Shown in pieces: positions 20,340 to 41,720 of a DNA stretch of 43,731 bases. Positions within the stretch are counted from its first letter, which is position 1. Each line of letters begins with the position of its first letter. A program made the position numbers and the translations under genes. Source of the DNA: a virus; the IMG/VR virus record IMGVR_UViG_3300045988_034292, positions 1 to 43,731 of that record, one strand, 5' to 3'. The notes beneath the pieces are model-generated. The model was given only the letters and a program-made list of their open reading frames with translations. It did no database searches and was not told the origin of the DNA.

Positions 20340-21509
20340 CTAAAGGGGCAAGGAAGGGGCAAGGTTGTTTGTAATGATATTATCTAAAACGTTGACCGCT
20401 TGATCCTTCATGTTCCTTGTGACATGGGTATATATGCTAGTAGTCACTTCCGAGTCAGCATGACCAACCCTGTCCATGATGGTTTTTAGTGGCACATTGT
20501 TTTCAGCTAGTATGCTAATTGTGGTGTGTCTGAAGATATGAGGGGATAGATGCTTGTCGATAGGTGTTTCCAGTCTGGTGTTCGCTCGTTGAAGTGATGC
20601 ACTCAAAATGGTGCTGTGGATAGGTTTACCGGTGTTGGTTGTAAAAATCTTATCGCTATGATACCAATCTGGATTGGCTGTTTCGCTTAACTCTCTCAAC
20701 TCTAGTAACTGGTCAATGATTTCTATCTCTCGATTAGTGAGGTAGGTGGTTCGATAACTAGCGACTGTTTTCGTCCCTTCGTTTTCTGGAATGTATCTGT
20801 TGAAGGATGTGTGGATATCCAAAGAGCGTGTCTCTTTGTGGTAATCTGAAACAGTTAGACCAGCCAACTCTCCTATCCGACAACCGTTTAAAAGCATAAA
20901 CTCGCACGCTAGAGCATATCTCAGTGTTACGTCTTTTCGGTAGAGCTCTTTCAATAAGCGACTGTATTCGTCCGGTTCTAAGTATTTATTCTTGGCAATT
21001 TGTTGTTTCTCAAGTTTATTCTTTTTCTTTGGAAGACGTGCCTTCCTCGATGGGTTATCGGTTATAAGTTGTTGGTCCATAGCATAATCGAAGAATGTAT
21101 TTAACACGGTCTTGGCACGATATTTCTGCGAATCTGTCCAGTCTTCAGTGTCTAGTAAGGATTGGATAAGTCTGACATTGATATTTGATAAGATTGTTCC
21201 TTGTTCGATAGCGTCAGATATTCGCTTAACGGATGCTGCAAGGCTCTTGATTGAACTTAACTTAATCTGCTTTTGATGAAATTCCCACCACTCGTTGAAA
21301 GCACTATGGAATGATACATTAGTGGTGCTTGACAATTCCATTTTCTGAGCTATCTTATCATCCAGCAAGCGTTGAGCTTCTTTCTTTGCTCGATTCGAAC
21401 CACTGGATAGAGTTACAGATACCCGTTTCCATTTCTCGGTGTAAGTGTCCTTGTATCTTTCAAAATATTTATATTTTCCGTTTTGTAATTGTTCTACCCA
21501 CATTGTCAT
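20340..21509 (-). CDS. int: Tyrosine recombinase (phage integrase)
   Basis: 389 aa. The C-terminal catalytic region has RIGEL, HIFRHT and GHADSEVTTSIYTHV (R...H-x-x-R...Y). It is adjacent to an AT-rich attP-like region. Confidence 0.9.
   Translation of the reverse strand: MTMWVEQLQNGKYKYFERYKDTYTEKWKRVSVTLSSGSNRAKKEAQRLLDDKIAQKMELSSTTNVSFHSAFNEWWEFHQKQIKLSSIKSLAASVKRISDAIEQGTILSNINVRLIQSLLDTEDWTDSQKYRAKTVLNTFFDYAMDQQLITDNPSRKARLPKKKNKLEKQQIAKNKYLEPDEYSRLLKELYRKDVTLRYALACEFMLLNGCRIGELAGLTVSDYHKETRSLDIHTSFNRYIPENEGTKTVASYRTTYLTNREIEIIDQLLELRELSETANPDWYHSDKIFTTNTGKPIHSTILSASLQRANTRLETPIDKHLSPHIFRHTTISILAENNVPLKTIMDRVGHADSEVTTSIYTHVTRNMKDQAVNVLDNIITNNLAPSLPL
20343..20362 (+). repeat. AAGGGGCAA x2, 11-bp phased (repeat pair 2, overlapping the integrase 3' end)
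   Basis: aaggggcaa occurs at 20343-20351 and 20354-20362. The pair encodes the last residues (APSLPL) of Int on the opposite strand. Confidence 0.8.
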
Positions 21510-23142: not shown

Positions 23143-23511
23143 CTATCTACCTCTCAAATAAATCTCAATGATGTTCTGTATGGCATCGATGTCTTCTTCT
23201 GTAAGAGGCTTGCCATCGAAGGTCTTGGCATTCTCTGCCATCTTTCGTAGGTCGTCAGACGTGTATCCTGCGATTGTATCATCCTTTGCAATAGCCGGGC
23301 CATCTCCGAAAAGAATGTAATCTGTCGAAGTCCCCAAGGCTTGAGCTAATTTCACAATCTTTGTCCCTGTTGGAATACTAGCGCCGCTTTCCCACTTCGA
23401 AATAGTTGAGTCAGACTTATACCCTAACATTTTCGCCAATTCAAGTTGGCTAATGCCCTTGCTAGCTCTCAAACTTTCAATTCTGCCACCTCTTTGCTTA
23501 TTCAAATCCAT
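23143..23511 (-). CDS. CI-like XRE-family repressor (no S24 peptidase domain)
   Basis: 122 aa with an N-terminal HTH (ISQLELAKMLGYKSDSTISKWESG). It is divergent from a Cro-like gene. The short C-terminal domain lacks a Ser/Lys autocleavage module. Confidence 0.85.
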   Translation of the reverse strand: MDLNKQRGGRIESLRASKGISQLELAKMLGYKSDSTISKWESGASIPTGTKIVKLAQALGTSTDYILFGDGPAIAKDDTIAGYTSDDLRKMAENAKTFDGKPLTEEDIDAIQNIIEIYLRGR

Positions 23512-23538: not shown

Positions 23539-23567
23539 ATTATATAGTAGACTTTCTTAATTTTCAA
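23539..23567 (-). promoter_or_regulatory. Leftward (repressor) promoter TTGAAA-17-TATAAT
   Basis: The reverse complement of 23562-23567 is TTGAAA and of 23539-23544 is TATAAT. The spacer is exactly 17 bp, about 28 nt upstream of the CI ATG. Confidence 0.7.
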
Positions 23568-23617
23568 GTTGATTTATAAAAAAAACAAAAAAACTTGAAA
23601 AAAAATCAATAAAACTA

Positions 23618-23646
23618 TTGACATTGAATTTAATTCAAGCTATAAT
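23618..23646 (+). promoter_or_regulatory. Rightward (early lytic) promoter TTGACA-17-TATAAT
   Basis: Consensus -35 at 23618-23623 and -10 at 23641-23646 with a 17-bp spacer, upstream of the Cro-like gene. Confidence 0.8.
23623..23639. promoter_or_regulatory. Operator O1 (aTTGAATTTAATTCAAG)
   Basis: 16 of 17 positions match the palindrome, and it fills the spacer of the rightward promoter. Confidence 0.7.
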
Positions 23647-25560: not shown

Positions 25561-27273
25561 ATGATTTCACAAACAATTGCAAAACCAGGATTCACTGTAT
25601 CTAAAGCCTATGGGCTTTGTGGAACATTGGCGCTTGCTACCGCTCTATTGATTGGAGCTGGTGCAGTGTCAGCGGACGAAACAACGGCACCAGTGGTGGA
25701 CGCACAACCAGCCGTGTCTAATGTCTACACTGCCGATAATGCTGGGAATATTACGGTGACACCTAGCGAAACAGTGGCACCAGTAGCTGAAACACCAGTA
25801 TTTACTCCACCAGCACCAGTGGAATCTCAACCGATTGCAGAAACTCAACCAGTAGCAACTACTGTTACTAAAGAGGGAACAGAAATCACAGTTTCTAATC
25901 CAGAAGTTAACGTGACATTCCCTAACGGTACGGGTAAATATAGCCCATTCGAAGTTGAATACAAGGATATCAATATTCCAGACGATATCCCAGTTAACGA
26001 GGGCGACAAGGTGGTTACTGAGCTGCCTAAAGAAATTGGTCTTCAAACATCATTCGACTTTGATGTTTACAACAACGAGAATGTCGTTGGTAAGGCCAAT
26101 GCTGACGCTCAAGCTCGCAAGATCACAACTACTTTTAACAATTACTTCACTGAGCATCCATTGAATAAGAAAATGTCTCTTAAATTCGACGCTAAGTGGA
26201 CTGACGTGGTTACTCCAGGTAAACCAGTGACCGTTAATTTTAACGGGACAGTTAAAAACTTTGAAATTGCTGACGGAAACCCAATTCCAACAGACGAATT
26301 GCTTTCAAAATGGGGTTGGCAAGACAAGAATGATCCACAGATTATTAACTGGACTTTGCGACTTAACACAGCACGCAAGGTACTTAACAATGCAGTGCTA
26401 TCTGATACTTGGTCCAACAATCAACAATTTGTTGACGGTTCACAAAACATCTACTTTGTAGAAGACCCACTCAATTGGACTGTTATCGACCACTCTGCTA
26501 AAGACTACTTGGAGTCTTGGAACGTACGAGCTGACGGTTTTGACGCAAAATTCAAAGAGTTTAACCGCATCATGTACATTGGTTACCAAACTCGATTGAA
26601 AACAGCGGTTAAAGATAGCACCAATCCAACCAATAAAGCTGAGTTGGTAGCGGTAGACGCTGGGGCGAAATCGTCTTCTAAGGTCCAGTTAGTTGGTGGC
26701 CGTGGTGACGCAAGCGGTGAGAATAAACCGGAACCAACTTTCGAGGTGCCAAATTACGCACCTAAAGTTGACATCCCCGAATTTGAGGGCGGTATCCCAG
26801 GTATTCCAGAGGTACGAGAATTGCCGGAATATACTGAGCCAATTGGAACTGTTCCAAATGACGCTCCAGTTTTGGATAAGCCAGAATGGAGTGGCGGCAC
26901 AGTACCAAATGAAGCTCCAGTACATTACAAACCTGAGTTTGAAGGTGGAGTAATTCCGAATGATGCCCCTATCCTCGATTTGCCAGAATTGCATATCCCA
27001 GAGGAACCAACACCAGAAAAACCTAGCGCACCCAAAGAGGTGCCTAGCAAGCCTGTAGACGCTCCGAAATCTAAAGAGGTAGAAACTACCACAGTTAGTT
27101 ATAACCTCGATTCTGAGCCGTCTGAGGTGGCAAACACACCGGTTTACAGTGCGACCTTGCCAAACACTGGTGAAAAAGAAGGTATTGCTAGCACTTTGGG
27201 ATTGGTAGTGATTGCTGCCGGTATCACTGCTTTAACTCTTGGCTTCAAGAAGCACAACGAATGTGAGGAATAA
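25561..27273 (+). CDS. LPXTG cell-wall-anchored surface protein (adhesin-like) carried by the phage
   Basis: 570 aa. It has a signal peptide (...LALATALLIGAGAVSADE) and an MSCRAMM-like stretch (ITTTFNNYFTEHPLNKKMSLKF). Four Pro-rich 17-aa repeats are followed by LPNTG at 27157-27171, a hydrophobic helix and KKHNECEE. Confidence 0.85.
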   Translation: MISQTIAKPGFTVSKAYGLCGTLALATALLIGAGAVSADETTAPVVDAQPAVSNVYTADNAGNITVTPSETVAPVAETPVFTPPAPVESQPIAETQPVATTVTKEGTEITVSNPEVNVTFPNGTGKYSPFEVEYKDINIPDDIPVNEGDKVVTELPKEIGLQTSFDFDVYNNENVVGKANADAQARKITTTFNNYFTEHPLNKKMSLKFDAKWTDVVTPGKPVTVNFNGTVKNFEIADGNPIPTDELLSKWGWQDKNDPQIINWTLRLNTARKVLNNAVLSDTWSNNQQFVDGSQNIYFVEDPLNWTVIDHSAKDYLESWNVRADGFDAKFKEFNRIMYIGYQTRLKTAVKDSTNPTNKAELVAVDAGAKSSSKVQLVGGRGDASGENKPEPTFEVPNYAPKVDIPEFEGGIPGIPEVRELPEYTEPIGTVPNDAPVLDKPEWSGGTVPNEAPVHYKPEFEGGVIPNDAPILDLPELHIPEEPTPEKPSAPKEVPSKPVDAPKSKEVETTTVSYNLDSEPSEVANTPVYSATLPNTGEKEGIASTLGLVVIAAGITALTLGFKKHNECEE

Positions 27274-37294: not shown

Positions 37295-37819
37295 ATGCCG
37301 ATGCCAATGGTCAGACGATGTAAGGCAGAGGGGTGCCGTGCCTTAACAGAAAGACCAGCACACTACTGTACTGCACACCACAGTATGGAAGCAGCATACA
37401 TAGAGGAACGACAGAGATACTCACGTACTAGATACAACAAGCGAGTAAGGAACAGAGACGATGAGAGTAAGGAACGCTATGCGTTCTATCGTTCAAAGAC
37501 TTGGTCTCCTATTCGTAAGATAGCGTTGGAACGTGACAACTATCTATGTCAGTATTGTCTAGCGTTGGGTGTGACCACACCAGACGCACGCATAGGCGAC
37601 CACGTAACACCCATTGAAATAGCGCCAGAACTTAGGACAGAAATTTCAAATGTAGTGGCGACGTGTAGAAGTTGCGATAATACCAAGAGGACCTTGGAAC
37701 AAGAAATCTATGGCACTGGTCAAAATAGGACGAAACAGAACACGGAGCTACGACTTTCCGTGGCAGCGTGGGCAGGTTTAATAGCCCGGAAAAAAGAGGA
37801 CGTCGTTAAACCCCTCTAA
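37295..37819 (+). CDS. HNH endonuclease (packaging-associated)
   Basis: 174 aa with CQYC...GDHVTPIE...CRSCDNTK. It lies just upstream of the cos-like region and terS, as in HK97-like cos phages. Confidence 0.85.
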   Translation: MPMPMVRRCKAEGCRALTERPAHYCTAHHSMEAAYIEERQRYSRTRYNKRVRNRDDESKERYAFYRSKTWSPIRKIALERDNYLCQYCLALGVTTPDARIGDHVTPIEIAPELRTEISNVVATCRSCDNTKRTLEQEIYGTGQNRTKQNTELRLSVAAWAGLIARKKEDVVKPL

Positions 37820-37994: not shown

Positions 37995-38474
37995 GTGGCA
38001 AATAAGTCACCAGCAAGGCGAGAGCCGTTTTACAAGCAAAATGACCGTTTTCTACCACTTGACCCGCCAAACTATCTAGGGACAGTGGCGAGGACGGTTT
38101 GGACTAAAATCATTCCATTTTTAAAAGCAACAGAAAAGGTCGAGCGTATCGATACGTTTCTAGTGGAAACCTACTGCACAACCTATGAGATTTACAAAAA
38201 AGCCTATGAGGACGTGAAAGAAAACGGTATCCAAACCGAGATTATCAAAGTTATTCAATCGCCTGGTACTGGTGAAATTTTAGGCGAGCAATCAATGGGA
38301 TTCAAGAAAAACCCAGCCGTTGCGACGATGAAAGACGCTGCCGAAACCCTTAATAAAATAGGCATTCAGCTAGGCCTAACACCTAAAGGACGGGCAGAAT
38401 TGGCTGAGATAGCCGGAAGCCAAGCGGATAATAAGTCTCTAGGGGATATGATGAAAGAATTTTTAGGGAAATAA
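37995..38474 (+). CDS. terS: Terminase small subunit (P27 family-like)
   Basis: 159 aa with a GTG start after aggaggtg. The N-terminus PARREPFYKQNDRFLPLDPPNYL and overall length are typical of P27-family TerS. Confidence 0.8.
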   Translation: MANKSPARREPFYKQNDRFLPLDPPNYLGTVARTVWTKIIPFLKATEKVERIDTFLVETYCTTYEIYKKAYEDVKENGIQTEIIKVIQSPGTGEILGEQSMGFKKNPAVATMKDAAETLNKIGIQLGLTPKGRAELAEIAGSQADNKSLGDMMKEFLGK

Positions 38475-38485
38475 AAAAGAACGGC

Positions 38486-38617
38486 TTATGCCATTCCGAG
38501 ATATTCTTTTAGTAGTTTTTCGATAAGCTCTGCCACACTGGTATTTTCTTCGATAGCTTGAATTTTTGCTTTTTTGATAACATCTTCATCAATAGTTGTT
38601 GTAAATTTCTTCTTCAT
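38486..38617 (-). CDS. Ribbon-helix-helix (CopG/Arc-like) small DNA-binding protein (43 aa; not in the ORF track)
   Basis: Hand translation: MKKKFTTTIDEDVIKKAKIQAIEENTSVAELIEKLLKEYLGMA, a beta-strand/helix/helix pattern. RBS aggagg and a consensus promoter lie upstream. Confidence 0.65.
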   Translation of the reverse strand: MKKKFTTTIDEDVIKKAKIQAIEENTSVAELIEKLLKEYLGMA

Positions 38618-38635
38618 GGTTTGCCTCCTAAGTAT

Positions 38636-38685
38636 ATTATACGTGATTATTTATAATTGTACAATACGTACATACGTGTTATAAT
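38636..38685. promoter_or_regulatory. Back-to-back divergent consensus promoters sharing the palindrome TTGTACAA
   Basis: Plus strand: TTGTAC (38657-38662), 17 bp, TATAAT (38680-38685). Minus strand: TTGTAC (rc of 38659-38664), 17 bp, TATAAT (rc of 38636-38641). Confidence 0.75.
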
Positions 38686-38703
38686 ATATTTAGAGGTAGC
38701 AAC

Positions 38704-39636
38704 ATGACTAAGAAAAAGACGGATTCTGAATTTAAAGCTCAAGTCGAACAAATCGCCAAGGGCGAATACTCTTTTCTCGATGCGTACAAAGATGCAAGAA
38801 CAAAGATTACTTGCTGTCACAATAAATGTGGAAACGTTTGGGAGATAAGCCCAGATAACTTTCTTAGAGGTAAGAGATGCCCAGAATGTCAAAACGAATC
38901 AAGAATTTTGAATCGGAGAAATTCTTTGAAACGAGTGGAGGAAATAATTCGTCAAAAAAGTGGCGGGGAATTTGAGTACATTTCTGGATATGTAAATTCT
39001 AAATCTAAAGTAAAATTAAAACATTTAAGGTGTGGCAGAACGATAGTTAAGCCATTCTCAGCATTTTACGACGGTATCTCTTGTAGTTGCGAAAAGACAA
39101 ACAGAGACATCGTTGATTTTAAAAGCAATGGTGATAGAATACAGTGCAAAGCTGATTTTCAACGCTATATTGATAAGTACGTAACTGGCGAATATGTAAT
39201 AATTGGAAGATACGTAAAATCGACAAAACCGATACTTTTAAAACATGTAGAATGTGGGAATTTAACAGAAATTTCACCTCACAATTTCAAAAATGGTGTT
39301 AGGTGTGATAAATGTAAAAGCTATAAAGGCGAGTTGAAAATAAGAGATTTACTTTTGAAAAAAGGTGTATTTTTTGAAGAACAAGTCAGATTTAGCGATT
39401 GTAGACTTAAAAAACCTTTAGTATTTGATTTTTTCTTACCAATCCACAATATATTGATTGAATTTGATGGAGAACAACATATAAGACCTATTGAAAGATG
39501 GGGTGGAGAAAAAGCCTTCCAACTTCAAAGAAAAAGGGATGAGATAAAGAATAATTACTGTAAAAACAATGGTATTACCCTTGTTAGAATAGGATATTAC
39601 GAAAATATAGAACAGAAAATAAAGCGTTATATCTAA
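38704..39636 (+). CDS. Triple zinc-ribbon protein with a C-terminal Vsr/DUF559-like PD-(D/E)XK nuclease domain (homing-endonuclease-like or defence nuclease)
   Basis: 310 aa with three modules of the form GEY..L/I..Y......K....H..CG....ISP.NF..G.RC..C. The C-terminus is PLVFDFFLP...ILIEFDGEQH...KRDEIKNNYCKNNGITLVRI. Confidence 0.6.
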   Translation: MTKKKTDSEFKAQVEQIAKGEYSFLDAYKDARTKITCCHNKCGNVWEISPDNFLRGKRCPECQNESRILNRRNSLKRVEEIIRQKSGGEFEYISGYVNSKSKVKLKHLRCGRTIVKPFSAFYDGISCSCEKTNRDIVDFKSNGDRIQCKADFQRYIDKYVTGEYVIIGRYVKSTKPILLKHVECGNLTEISPHNFKNGVRCDKCKSYKGELKIRDLLLKKGVFFEEQVRFSDCRLKKPLVFDFFLPIHNILIEFDGEQHIRPIERWGGEKAFQLQRKRDEIKNNYCKNNGITLVRIGYYENIEQKIKRYI

Positions 39637-39665
39637 CGTTTTATTTTTTTTGGAAAGGAGCAATA

Positions 39666-41537
39666 GTGAAAACGAATCTGACCAAAACTCACGATATAGA
39701 TGCAGCGTATAAGGAATTTGATTTCACTGACATCGCTAAAAAATATCAAGACGATGGCACAAAATATTGCTTTGATGCCTTAGAAGGTCGAATAGTGACT
39801 GGGTACATGATTAAATTGGCATGTTTCAGACACTTACGAGACCTACAAAGGCAAGGCAACGACGACTTTCCATATACCTATGAAACGACTGAGGCGGACA
39901 AATTATTGCGTTTTGCTAGGATATGCCCAAACGTTGATACTGGTGAACCTACACAGTTGATGCCGTGGCAGAAATTCATCCTATGTATGCTTTTCGGGTG
40001 GAGAAACGCTAACGGTGGTAAACGTTTCAGCCGTGCCATTGTTTCAGTTGGTCGTGGCCAAGGTAAAACGTATTTGATGGCTATTCTTACGGCGTATTCA
40101 TACTTTATTGAAAGTTTCGGATTGTCAAACCAAGATTATCTGGTAACCTCTATCAACTTCAAACAAACAAACAAGTTGCTTGGTTACATCAAATCTATGA
40201 TGAAACAGATAATCCAAAACGAGCCTTTCAAGAGTTTGGCGAATGAAACTGAGTTAGGTTTGCATAGCGACCAAGTTATTATGAAGGCCAACAACAATGT
40301 TTTAAGGGCTATATCCGCTGAGAGTGGGCAATATGATAGTTTTCACTTTACAACCGCTATTTTTGACGAGATTGGAGAAATCGAAACAAGAGATGCAGTC
40401 TCTAAAATTGTTTCTGGGCAAGTAAAAGTCCCGAATCGACAGTTTGTCCAAATTTCTACCGCTTACCCAAATCCGTCCGTTCCGTTTAGGGAAGACCAAA
40501 GGATTATGCAGCAAGCTATGGAAGATGACGATAGTAGGGATGCTGATACGTACCTTTGCTTAGTATGGTCTCAAGACAATTTAGATGAGGTTTTCCAACC
40601 AGAAACATGGGGGAAAAGTAACCCGCTTTTAGACTTGGAACAAGAGCGTGATAACCTCATGAAAGGGTTGATGGATAAAAGGGATAGTGACTTATTAAGT
40701 GGTAACCTTGCCGACTTCCAAGTTAAGAATATGAATTGCTGGCTATTGGCAGATAGCAACAGTTTCCTTGATTTAGACGACATTGAGAATGCAGTCGTTG
40801 ATGAATTCGACATCAAGGGTAAGCGTGTTTATGTCGGACTTGACGCTTCAATGTTTAGCGATAATACGGCTATTGGTTTCGTCTATCCCTACGTTACTGA
40901 AGACGGCAGACAGAAATGGCACATCGAACAGCACAGTTTTATTCCGTGGCAACAAGCGGGCTCGCTAGAAGCCAAAATGGAGCAGGACGGTGTCAATTAT
41001 CGAGACCTAGAAACCAAGGGCTATTGTACGATTACGAGCCACCCACAAGGGCTTATCAATCCAGAAGAGGTCTATCGTTGGTTTTGTGAATATGTCGAAG
41101 ATAACCAACTGGATGTGGTCTTTTTTGGATATGACGCTATGGGGGTTTCTAAAATCATCAAGGCGTTGGAATCTAACACTAGCTTTCCAATGATGCCGAT
41201 TAGACAACGGACCAGCGAATTAAAAGACCCGACAAAATTCCTTCAAACGCTCTTTATCGAAGGGAATATCACTCGCCTTGATGATGAAATCATGCGTAAA
41301 GCCTTGATAAATGCGGTGATTAAAGAAGACAACATCGGTATTCAAGTCGATAAAATGAAATCTACTTATAAAATCGACGTTGTGGATGCCCTTATCGATG
41401 CGTTTTATGATGGCATGTATGCCTTTGAAGACTACGCTATTACCAACAATCCAACGTGGAAGGTAGAACACATGAGTCAAGAGGCCGTTTTGAATTGGCT
41501 AAAAAACCCAGATAGTGGGCTATTAGAGGAGTATTAA
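39666..41537 (+). CDS. terL: Terminase large subunit
   Basis: 623 aa with a GTG start after ggaaaggag. Walker A-like motif VGRGQGKTY and Walker B-like motif AIFDEIGE, with a C-terminal nuclease region. It is followed by the portal gene. Confidence 0.88.
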   Translation: MKTNLTKTHDIDAAYKEFDFTDIAKKYQDDGTKYCFDALEGRIVTGYMIKLACFRHLRDLQRQGNDDFPYTYETTEADKLLRFARICPNVDTGEPTQLMPWQKFILCMLFGWRNANGGKRFSRAIVSVGRGQGKTYLMAILTAYSYFIESFGLSNQDYLVTSINFKQTNKLLGYIKSMMKQIIQNEPFKSLANETELGLHSDQVIMKANNNVLRAISAESGQYDSFHFTTAIFDEIGEIETRDAVSKIVSGQVKVPNRQFVQISTAYPNPSVPFREDQRIMQQAMEDDDSRDADTYLCLVWSQDNLDEVFQPETWGKSNPLLDLEQERDNLMKGLMDKRDSDLLSGNLADFQVKNMNCWLLADSNSFLDLDDIENAVVDEFDIKGKRVYVGLDASMFSDNTAIGFVYPYVTEDGRQKWHIEQHSFIPWQQAGSLEAKMEQDGVNYRDLETKGYCTITSHPQGLINPEEVYRWFCEYVEDNQLDVVFFGYDAMGVSKIIKALESNTSFPMMPIRQRTSELKDPTKFLQTLFIEGNITRLDDEIMRKALINAVIKEDNIGIQVDKMKSTYKIDVVDALIDAFYDGMYAFEDYAITNNPTWKVEHMSQEAVLNWLKNPDSGLLEEY

Positions 41538-41540
41538 TAC

Positions 41541-41720
41541 ATGATTTTGAAGTTTTTTAAGGCAATTTGGGCTATTTTTGACATTTTGATGTTCATTTTA
41601 GCTGCAATTTCGCTTAATGTGACCACTTACCATATTGGCTACGTGTGGTTTGGCGTTAGTATGACAATCACATTCGTACTAGCTGGGCTAGTGAGTGAAT
41701 TAGCTAGCAAGAAAGGCTAG
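41541..41720 (+). CDS. Small two-TM membrane protein (59 aa; not in the ORF track)
   Basis: Hand translation: MILKFFKAIWAIFDILMFILAAISLNVTTYHIGYVWFGVSMTITFVLAGLVSELASKKG. RBS agaggag upstream. Confidence 0.45.
   Translation: MILKFFKAIWAIFDILMFILAAISLNVTTYHIGYVWFGVSMTITFVLAGLVSELASKKG

Follow-up and report, generated by a model that had tools for sequence, protein, structure and literature searches.

A candidate homing endonuclease cassette with its own ribbon-helix-helix regulator between terS and terL of a temperate Streptococcus phage

Organization of the locus

The IMG/VR virus record IMGVR_UViG_3300045988_034292 is a stretch of 43,731 nucleotides that was analyzed at its full length (hereafter, the window). 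It is the complete, circularly permuted genome of a temperate Streptococcus phage. In this genome, the small and large terminase genes, terS and terL, are separated by a 1.19-kb insert composed of two divergent genes. One encodes a ribbon-helix-helix (RHH) protein of 43 amino acids (aa), and the other a 310-aa protein in which three zinc modules precede a Vsr-like nuclease domain. The insert is interpreted here as a free-standing homing endonuclease cassette with its own transcriptional safety catch, a reading that is assigned a probability of about 0.65. An earlier reading of this DNA, made from its letters without database searches (the sequence-only reading), had described the 1.19-kb gap and its two divergent genes, and the coordinates it gave were correct (Table 1).

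The nearest relatives of the window are the S. salivarius phages Javan536, SA-TP2, and YMC-2011 and the Moineauvirus phages of S. thermophilus. Genes typical of a temperate phage include an integrase (20340-21509), an ImmA-like protease, and a CI-like repressor (23143-23511, minus strand). The packaging module is composed of, in order, an HNH gene (37295-37819), terS, the 43-aa open reading frame (ORF) on the minus strand, an 86-bp gap, the 310-aa ORF on the plus strand, and terL.

Table 1. Features of the cassette and its flanks, in window coordinates.
Feature	Position	Strand	Description	Evidence
terS (small terminase)	37995-38474	+	Upstream flank	Pfam Terminase_4, E 3.4e-22
Left cassette end	38478-38497	-	Terminator-like hairpin and T-run at the 3' end of the RHH gene	Scan match GGAATGGCATAAGCCGTTCT+TTTTT
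RHH gene	38486-38617	-	Ribbon-helix-helix protein (Arc/CopG-like), 43 aa; predicted repressor of both cassette promoters	Profile matches, dN/dS
Pseudo-symmetric control region	38606-38715	.	36-nt imperfect inverted-repeat arms, 38606-38641 and 38680-38715, 72% complementary	Same in VA460
Intergenic control gap	38618-38703		86 bp, between the RHH and nuclease genes	
RHH promoter	38636-38664	-	-35 TTGTAC 38664-38659, 17-nt spacer, -10 TATAAT 38641-38636	Promoter scan
Third half-site	38638-38645	.	TATACGTG over the RHH -10 box; candidate autoregulatory site	ATACGT repeat, kept in relatives
Nuclease promoter	38657-38685	+	-35 TTGTAC 38657-38662, 17-nt spacer, TGn-extended -10 TATAAT 38680-38685	Promoter scan
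Best operator candidate	38663-38680	.	AATACGTACATACGTGTT, imperfect copy of the VA460 18-bp palindrome AACACGTATATACGTGTT; fills the nuclease promoter spacer	Conservation across cargo types and hicAB promoters
Nuclease ORF, N-terminal DNA-binding region	38704-39318	+	Three HCCC zinc modules (residues 1-69, 70-143, 144-205)	Pfam, module alignment, AlphaFold
Nuclease ORF, C-terminal domain	39319-39636	+	Vsr-like PD-(D/E)XK domain (residues 206-310)	Alignments, domain model, Foldseek
Right cassette end	39622-39665	+	Weak hairpin and T-run, then the terL ribosome-binding site	Alignment; homologous to the Sfi19 terS-terL spacer
terL (large terminase)	39666-41537	+	Downstream flank, GTG start	TerL_nuclease 1.1e-33, TerL_ATPase 1.6e-17
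Second insertion site, empty	41520-41545	+	terL 3' end before the next gene	Occupied in CHPC1033, Javan389, and phage 94

The ribbon-helix-helix protein

The protein encoded by the minus-strand ORF matches Pfam DUF6364 at 39.3 bits (cut-off 27.3), with weaker matches to RHH_1, RHH_5, and HicB. It also matches PHROG 3180, "Arc-like repressor," at 1.1e-14, and its assignment to the RHH fold from sequence alone is confirmed. NCBIfam gave nothing but noise for this protein and has no family for the nuclease. An AGGAGG lies 6 nt upstream of the ATG. The identical protein is encoded in six relatives despite synonymous divergence (dS) as high as 0.95, and the ratio of nonsynonymous to synonymous divergence (dN/dS) among relatives is 0-0.07; the ORF is therefore a real gene. 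Its 43 residues make up the RHH fold alone, with no extension able to bind another protein, and the product is most likely a bare DNA-binding repressor.

Promoters and the candidate operator

The gap between the two genes contains back-to-back promoters, and their -35 boxes overlap within ATTGTACAAT (38656-38665). The sequence-only reading described them as two perfect TTGTAC-17-TATAAT promoters. Both are present, one on each strand, and both -10 boxes are perfect, but TTGTAC shares 3 of 6 positions with TTGACA. The best register of the promoter scanner is TGTACA-16-TATAAT, with 10 of 12 positions matched. The layout of the nuclease promoter is kept in all cassette variants and in the hicAB promoters described below.

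Promoters of this type are rare in the phage. TTG-N20-TATAAT is found four times in 43.7 kb against 0.62 expected, and none of 100 shuffles reached four. The two remaining copies are divergent promoters at 23539-23646. This stretch, flanked by the minus-strand CI-like repressor gene and by early genes that run rightward, is presumably the lysogeny switch. Because this is the sole other pair, the cassette promoters are of the same host-RNA-polymerase grade as those of the immunity region. The earlier claim of an autonomous cassette with housekeeping-type promoters is upheld, and expression in lysogens, which was proposed along with it, is plausible.

Originally proposed as the RHH operator, ATTGTACAAT was rejected because it is not conserved among cassettes that share the same RHH protein. 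Relatives have ATTGCACAAC, ATTGCGCAAT, or ATTGCACAAT in its place, and Javan389 lacks it. The likely operator is the near-palindrome ACGTACATACGT (38666-38677) in the spacer of the nuclease promoter. This is the window form of a conserved spacer element, ACGTATATACGT, i.e., ACGTA(Y)ATACGT, which in phage VA460 (locus L001) lies within a perfect 18-bp palindrome. The palindrome occupies the nuclease promoter spacer in every type-A cassette. The hexamer ATACGT is repeated three times within 39 nt of the control region (38639, 38664, and 38672), and both strands of the whole window together contain 16 copies. In VA460, TATACGTG forms a direct repeat spaced by 33 bp. The control region is also pseudo-symmetric: across its two 36-nt arms, the -10 box, ribosome-binding site, and first codons of one gene are mirrored by those of the other.

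The 310-aa nuclease

The nuclease ORF occupies 38704-39636 on the plus strand, and its product belongs to phrog_559 (E-value 1.1e-83), a large family of phage proteins annotated as homing endonucleases. Relatives were identified by tblastn in 495 phage records, including phages of Staphylococcus, Enterococcus, Bacillus, and Lactococcus, and several are annotated as homing endonucleases. The AlphaFold model of the whole protein (pLDDT 85.8) is composed of three repeated alpha-beta3-alpha units followed by a compact domain. This agrees with the architecture put forward in the sequence-only reading, three zinc modules and a Vsr/DUF559-like PD-(D/E)XK domain.

The three zinc modules align with one another, and the H, C-G, C, and C ligand positions of the pattern H-x2-C ... 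C-x(1,2)-C are invariant. The first module is a CapR homology domain (Pfam 26 bits, cut-off 24.2); a match to DUF4379 is weak. Cysteines C59, C62, C127, and C201 are invariant across the nuclease family. In phage homing endonucleases, zinc fingers of the CapR, DUF723, and DUF4379 types have been described as DNA-binding modules that occur in repeats and shuffle between genes (Barth et al. 2023, PMC10448857).

The C-terminal domain was also modeled separately (pLDDT 94, pTM 0.84). Its secondary structure, H-E-E-E-H-E-H, contains the alpha-beta-beta-beta-alpha-beta core of the PD-(D/E)XK superfamily. In a Foldseek search of the PDB, the domain matched Vsr (1cw0_A) with a TMq of 0.62 and a probability of 0.99. 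Other matches were TnsA, AbaSI, the R2 retrotransposon endonuclease, and bunyavirus cap-snatching nucleases, all of which possess PD-(D/E)XK folds, and the nuclease fold first suggested for this domain is accordingly recovered. Among viral models in BFVD, 156 proteins matched at E <= 1e-3. Their names include "Homing endonuclease" (Enterococcus phage EFP01 and Bacillus phages Eldridge and Bobb), "Group I intron protein" (phage LpeD), and DUF2726. In alignments of 48 homologs, no substitution is seen at D242, E253, G256, H259, D279, or K282, and D255 is nearly invariant; the acidic, His, and Lys positions among these are candidate catalytic residues. Pfam matches of family members are to DUF2726 (20 of 33) and DUF5889 (18 of 33), with a best E-value of 3.6e-7. 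Neither Foldseek run placed a chain of I-Bth0305I, a member of the EDxHD homing endonucleases, among its best 50 PDB matches. When the sequences of solved structures were searched, neither the full protein nor a nuclease-domain profile returned anything relevant.

The nuclease has a dN/dS of 0.04-0.26. Between the window and VA460, the nuclease domain is 95% identical and the DNA-binding part 80%. With the nuclease domain conserved above the DNA-binding part and dN/dS this low, the enzyme is maintained. Both cassette genes are under strong purifying selection.

Presence, absence, and movement of the cassette

Phage SA-TP2 has no insert, and its terS and terL are 12 nt apart. Its flanks are 92% identical to the window up to 38432 and from 40557 onward. 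The blastn match ends at 38432 and leaves a divergent tract, 38433-40556, that takes in the last 42 nt of terS (38433-38474) and the first ~890 nt of terL (to 40556). Comparison with a relative in which terS and terL are contiguous, as the sequence-only reading had proposed, thus bounds the divergence. The terL 5' part of this tract is a candidate co-conversion tract, and the target may lie within it. Each nuclease type is tied to its own terL 5' allele, a pattern expected with flank co-conversion or with diversification of the target.

Phage Sfi19 carries a relic of the cassette. Its 79-nt terS-terL spacer (locus L003, 2000-2078) contains TAT GAA AAT ATA GAA AAA AGC TAG, which encodes YENIEKS* and matches the nuclease C-terminus YYENIEQKIKRYI. 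This is followed by the same arrangement of hairpin and ribosome-binding site as in the window. Sfi19 therefore lost a cassette.

At the terS/terL site, the cassette is found in VA460, SW5, Javan288, and P7631/2. A second insertion site, empty in the window, is found in the terL 3' end. CHPC1033 has its cassette there, and the displaced terL end and ribosome-binding site ATTAGAGGAGTATTAATA are kept after the insert. The arrangement is the same in Javan389. Phage 94 has the same RHH at a comparable terL 3' position; the pairing with a nuclease was seen for CHPC1033 and Javan389. SW5, P7631/2, and CHPC1033 are cassette phages isolated on dairy S. thermophilus strains.

The regulator and the nuclease are exchanged as modules. 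CHPC1033 has an RHH protein with 95% aa identity to that of the window and a control region with 92% nt identity over 38473-38698. The shared DNA starts exactly at window position 38473, though the insertion sites differ. The CHPC1033 nuclease is a different member of the same family, with 32% and 47% identity in its two domains. In Javan389, an RHH protein that is 77% identical and a similar control region are likewise paired with a nuclease of the family that differs from that of the window. Further nuclease types at the terS/terL site are the SW2-type (378 aa) and the P7151-type (302 aa). Cassettes of these two types possess a non-homologous 46-aa RHH (Pfam RHH_3, 3e-14) in the same position, with the control repeats ATTGTAAAG/TACAAT. 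The RHH gene and its control region recombine independently of the nuclease ORF.

An intron-encoded nuclease was considered and excluded: Rfam found no intron or other RNA family in the whole window, and the ORF lies between an intact terS and an intact terL. A packaging role for the 310-aa protein was likewise rejected, as the usual HNH gene is already present at 37295-37819 and most relatives do without the 310-aa gene. An RHH gene was looked for beside the distant nuclease homologs (L016-L028), and none was found; these homologs sit in other phage genes or operons. The RHH-nuclease pairing is therefore lineage-specific and not a trait of the family. At one of these loci (L019, 3344-5921), a short nuclease homolog of 173 aa lies between two ORFs with similar N-terminal sequences (LQNTSGTNDKKEILA and LQSTSGSNDKKIILE). 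This looks like a gene that was split or duplicated through insertion of an endonuclease.

A sequence-reading region joined to a nuclease domain, presence in some relatives and absence in others, no intron or intein, and movement to a second site are all features of a free-standing homing endonuclease gene, and each is found here. Of the two readings offered originally, the free-standing homing endonuclease with its own regulator is the one that fits the presence/absence pattern, the Sfi19 relic, the second site, and the lack of an intron.

The cassette could instead be a domesticated or decaying element. Either the nuclease would no longer home and would serve the phage in another way, for example as a CapR-like DNA-binding regulator or in degradation of host DNA, or it would be on its way to being lost. 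CapR is a precedent for a domesticated homing endonuclease DNA-binding domain (PMC10448857), Sfi19 demonstrates that the cassette can be lost, and there is no sign of recent transfer. However, the candidate catalytic residues are invariant, the nuclease has a dN/dS of about 0.1, and its nuclease domain is better conserved than its DNA-binding part. The 310-aa gene is also not a core function because most relatives do without it. Domestication or decay is thus highly improbable.

The RHH-promoter-operator unit with other cargo

The 20-mer ACGTAYATACGTGTTATAAT was used to scan IMG/VR and one genome per GTDB species. The scan recovered the streptococcal cassettes together with related units upstream of other genes. 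In a Mesobacillus stamsii prophage, just upstream of its HNH-terS-terL genes, an RHH gene whose product is 72% identical to that of the window is divergent from an unrelated HNH-type endonuclease (phrog_374, 3e-72; L040 2924-3784 and L048 4339-5199). In a viral contig (L042 57-1369, reverse complement of the stored locus), the RHH gene is divergent from TnpB (OrfB_IS605 and Cas12f1-like TNB). The window-type palindrome lies in the TnpB promoter, making this locus an instance of the Arc-TnpB arrangement. Six contigs of 7-16 kb (L029, L030, L032, L035, L039, and L050) encode a Zot-like ATPase ORF, the RHH gene, and then a 67-aa ORF and a transposase. The control region of this group contains at least four ATACGT repeats and lies upstream of the 67-aa ORF and the transposase.

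The same operator is also found at toxin-antitoxin genes. Six hicA-hicB operons of Clostridia and Selenomonas (L043-L047 and L049) are preceded by TTGACA, AAYACGTATATACGTGT, and TATAAT, and their spacer contains the palindrome of the phage cassettes. The HicB proteins of these operons have an RHH-like tail at the C-terminus, which includes a strand similar to that of the window RHH (K-x-T-x-T-I) and is 32% identical to the window RHH over 38 residues in a global alignment. The palindrome is repeatedly linked to RHH proteins of the window type and is placed where a bound repressor would occlude RNA polymerase.

The hicAB promoters count in favor of a second proposal of the sequence-only reading, that the cassette is a defense or superinfection-exclusion module of toxin-antitoxin type. 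Here, the nuclease would attack incoming phage or host DNA, the RHH protein would be its antidote or controller, and the lysogen would benefit. The phage is temperate, with its integrase and CI-like repressor, and the host-type promoters of the cassette could fire in a lysogen. Homing nucleases have also been reported to mediate competition among co-infecting phages. However, the two genes are divergent and not an antitoxin-toxin operon, and an RHH protein of 43 aa has no room for a toxin-binding tail. The cassette was placed in no defense system because PADLOC matched the zinc module only weakly and found nothing for the RHH protein. The same cassette is carried by phages isolated on dairy S. 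thermophilus, and its presence/absence pattern, relic, and second insertion site are signatures of a selfish element. A dedicated defense function is thus unlikely; exclusion of cassette-free relatives as a by-product of homing is possible.

Another explanation is that the RHH gene and its promoters form an independent regulatory moron. Its link to the nuclease would be incidental, and the RHH protein would mainly control other phage or host promoters that contain ACGTATATACGT. The separate recombination of the RHH gene and control region is in line with this, as is the association of the unit with unrelated cargo, such as the 67-aa protein and transposase of the L029-type contigs. Against it, ATACGT clusters in the window solely at the cassette control region. 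Moreover, every copy found is divergent and upstream of a cargo gene, with the palindrome inside the cargo promoter, and SW2-type cassettes have a non-homologous RHH in the same place. An incidental link is very unlikely.

A broader proposal, which is possible but doubtful, places the homing endonuclease cassette among several captured units. The RHH gene with its promoter-operator unit would be a portable "safety catch" taken up repeatedly by unrelated selfish nucleases (PD-(D/E)XK, HNH, and TnpB), with an operator common to hicAB promoters. Within a lysogen, the unit would keep expression of the prophage's homing nuclease low but inducible. Relatives that enter without the cassette would be cut, and the nuclease would serve both to exclude them and to spread the cassette into those that survive.

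Proposed mechanism

Upon entry of the cassette, host RNA polymerase would fire both promoters and produce a short burst of nuclease. The three zinc modules would most likely read a long DNA target, and the Vsr-like domain would nick or cut terS-terL alleles that have no cassette, in relatives that co-infect the cell or reside in it. Recombinational repair of these alleles would then bring in the cassette along with the adjoining terS end and terL start. The carrier genome would be immune because the insert splits or replaces the target. As the RHH protein accumulates, it would bind the ACGTA(Y)ATACGT palindrome in the nuclease promoter spacer and the TATACGTG half-site at its own -10 box. The promoters would then shut down, and the nuclease would stay off or low in the lysogen.

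This reading is built on gene content, fold, distribution, the second site, module exchange, selection, and conservation of promoter and operator. From these features we infer cleavage, a target, and homing. Repression by the cassette RHH is proposed by analogy with the Arc protein of IS605 elements.

Several points weigh against the reading. No tested close relative of the nuclease was found from which cleavage, target, or homing could be carried over. The Foldseek E-values against solved structures are weak (0.007-0.07), and the window nuclease scores below the Pfam gathering thresholds for DUF5889 (20.1-23.2 bits, cut-off 27.1) and DUF2726 (17.3-19.8 bits, cut-off 24.7). The window palindrome is imperfect and has two substitutions relative to VA460. 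Mosaicism at terS-terL could stem from ordinary recombination and not from co-conversion. Between the window and VA460, the cassette is as diverged as its flanks are (82% in one alignment), and therefore shows no sign of recent transfer. The 20-mer was matched exactly and includes the -10 box, which biases the set of units recovered. Finally, the contacts predicted for IS605 Arc are Asn5, Asn7, and Thr9, whereas the corresponding strand of the cassette RHH reads K-F-T-T-T.

Relation to known systems

Arc-like RHH ORFs were reported in IStrons, with hundreds of homologs near TnpB, homing endonucleases, other mobile elements, and toxin-antitoxin systems (Zedaveinyte et al. 2023, PMC10690162). 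In IS605 elements, Arc binds the bidirectional promoter and represses tnpB, as demonstrated by ChIP-seq, reporter assays, and mutagenesis, and homing endonucleases are again among its listed neighbors (Moon, Zedaveinyte, Wiegand, and Sternberg 2026, bioRxiv 10.64898/2026.09.24.754181). The sequence-only reading did not recognize the pairing in the window as a described system. The neighborhood of Arc and homing endonucleases already appears in these two papers, however, and the mechanism has a tested precedent. Both papers list the homing endonuclease association without analyzing it. What is added here is a detailed case of such an association for a classical homing endonuclease that is guided by protein. 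Its boundaries are defined, it has two insertion sites and a relic, its regulator and nuclease are exchanged as modules, and a candidate for the operator is put forward. The literature search found nothing specific on a free-standing homing endonuclease with a ribbon-helix-helix protein, or on this cassette in S. thermophilus phages.

The likeness to IS605 Arc is close. In both systems, a selfish nuclease gene and a very small RHH gene point away from each other, and two strong promoters lie back to back between them, with repeats that overlap promoter elements. The spread of neighbors, i.e., homing endonucleases and toxin-antitoxin genes, is the same as that found around the window-type RHH. 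The cargo differs: for Arc it is TnpA/TnpB in an insertion sequence, and for the cassette a PD-(D/E)XK homing endonuclease, protein-guided and located in the packaging module of a phage. The window cassette contains neither TnpA nor TnpB; among the related loci, TnpB is found in L042 only. Repression by Arc was established by experiment, whereas that by the cassette RHH is predicted from the analogy.

Free-standing homing endonuclease genes of phages include the seg and mob genes of T4 and the T5orf172 genes of ICP1, which contain CapR/DUF723/DUF4379 repeats (PMC10448857). Like the cassette, they are inserted between conserved genes, are present in some relatives and absent in others, and are located at boundaries of mosaic sequence. 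They also share with the cassette zinc-finger DNA-binding repeats, which are arranged as "beads on a string" and shuffle between genes (PMC10448857). Unlike these genes, the cassette has a Vsr-like PD-(D/E)XK catalytic domain in place of GIY-YIG/T5orf172 or HNH. It also possesses a dedicated repressor and host-type promoters, where the others rely on phage middle or late promoters or on translational control.

The C-terminal domain shares its core fold with Vsr and with DUF559/DUF2726 proteins, along with a motif of the D...E-x-D-G-x-x-H type. Identity is 14-16%, however, and the cassette nuclease is fused to three zinc modules, phage-borne, and mobile. It has no link to mismatch repair, unlike Vsr. 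HicAB systems in which HicB has an RHH tail share the promoter-operator layout of the cassette. The cassette RHH lacks the toxin-neutralizing domain of HicB and is divergent from its cargo and not co-transcribed with it. The cargo is a DNA endonuclease and not the HicA mRNA interferase.

Two well-known phage systems offer parallels for the regulation. In the immI region of P22 (arc-ant and mnt), small RHH repressors act at overlapping divergent promoters, giving an early burst of expression followed by shut-off. The regulated gene there is an antirepressor and not a nuclease. Expression of the homing endonuclease I-TevI is held low through operator binding, but I-TevI represses itself via its own DNA-binding domain and not through a separate protein.

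Other features of the phage

The terL of the window is a single ORF of 623 aa, unlike in many relatives. In SW2, YMC-2011, CHPC1033, and many others, the annotation breaks terL near residue 230 into two ORFs that lie 11-82 nt apart (e.g., L004 2619-4500, L006 3983-5856, and L007 3149-5036).

The phage also contains an LPXTG-type surface ORF of 570 aa (25561-27273) with collagen-binding and bacterial Ig domains; the LPXTG annotation is taken from relatives. This ORF is a candidate lysogenic-conversion adhesin.

Significance

Homing endonuclease genes of phages shape mosaic boundaries and the competition between co-infecting phages. The expression of a homing endonuclease is potentially toxic, and how it is restrained is known for few cases. 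The cassette is a compact and common example in phages of S. thermophilus and S. salivarius, which are genetically tractable. Its RHH protein, a predicted dedicated repressor, moves together with the nuclease, as does the RHH promoter, and this pair is passed among nucleases that differ in specificity. On the homing endonuclease reading, it would extend the Arc-TnpB repression model to classical homing endonucleases. The system is suited to the direct study of regulated homing, of the terS/terL target, and of the effect on terminase allele diversity, which bears on phage typing and recombination in dairy plants.

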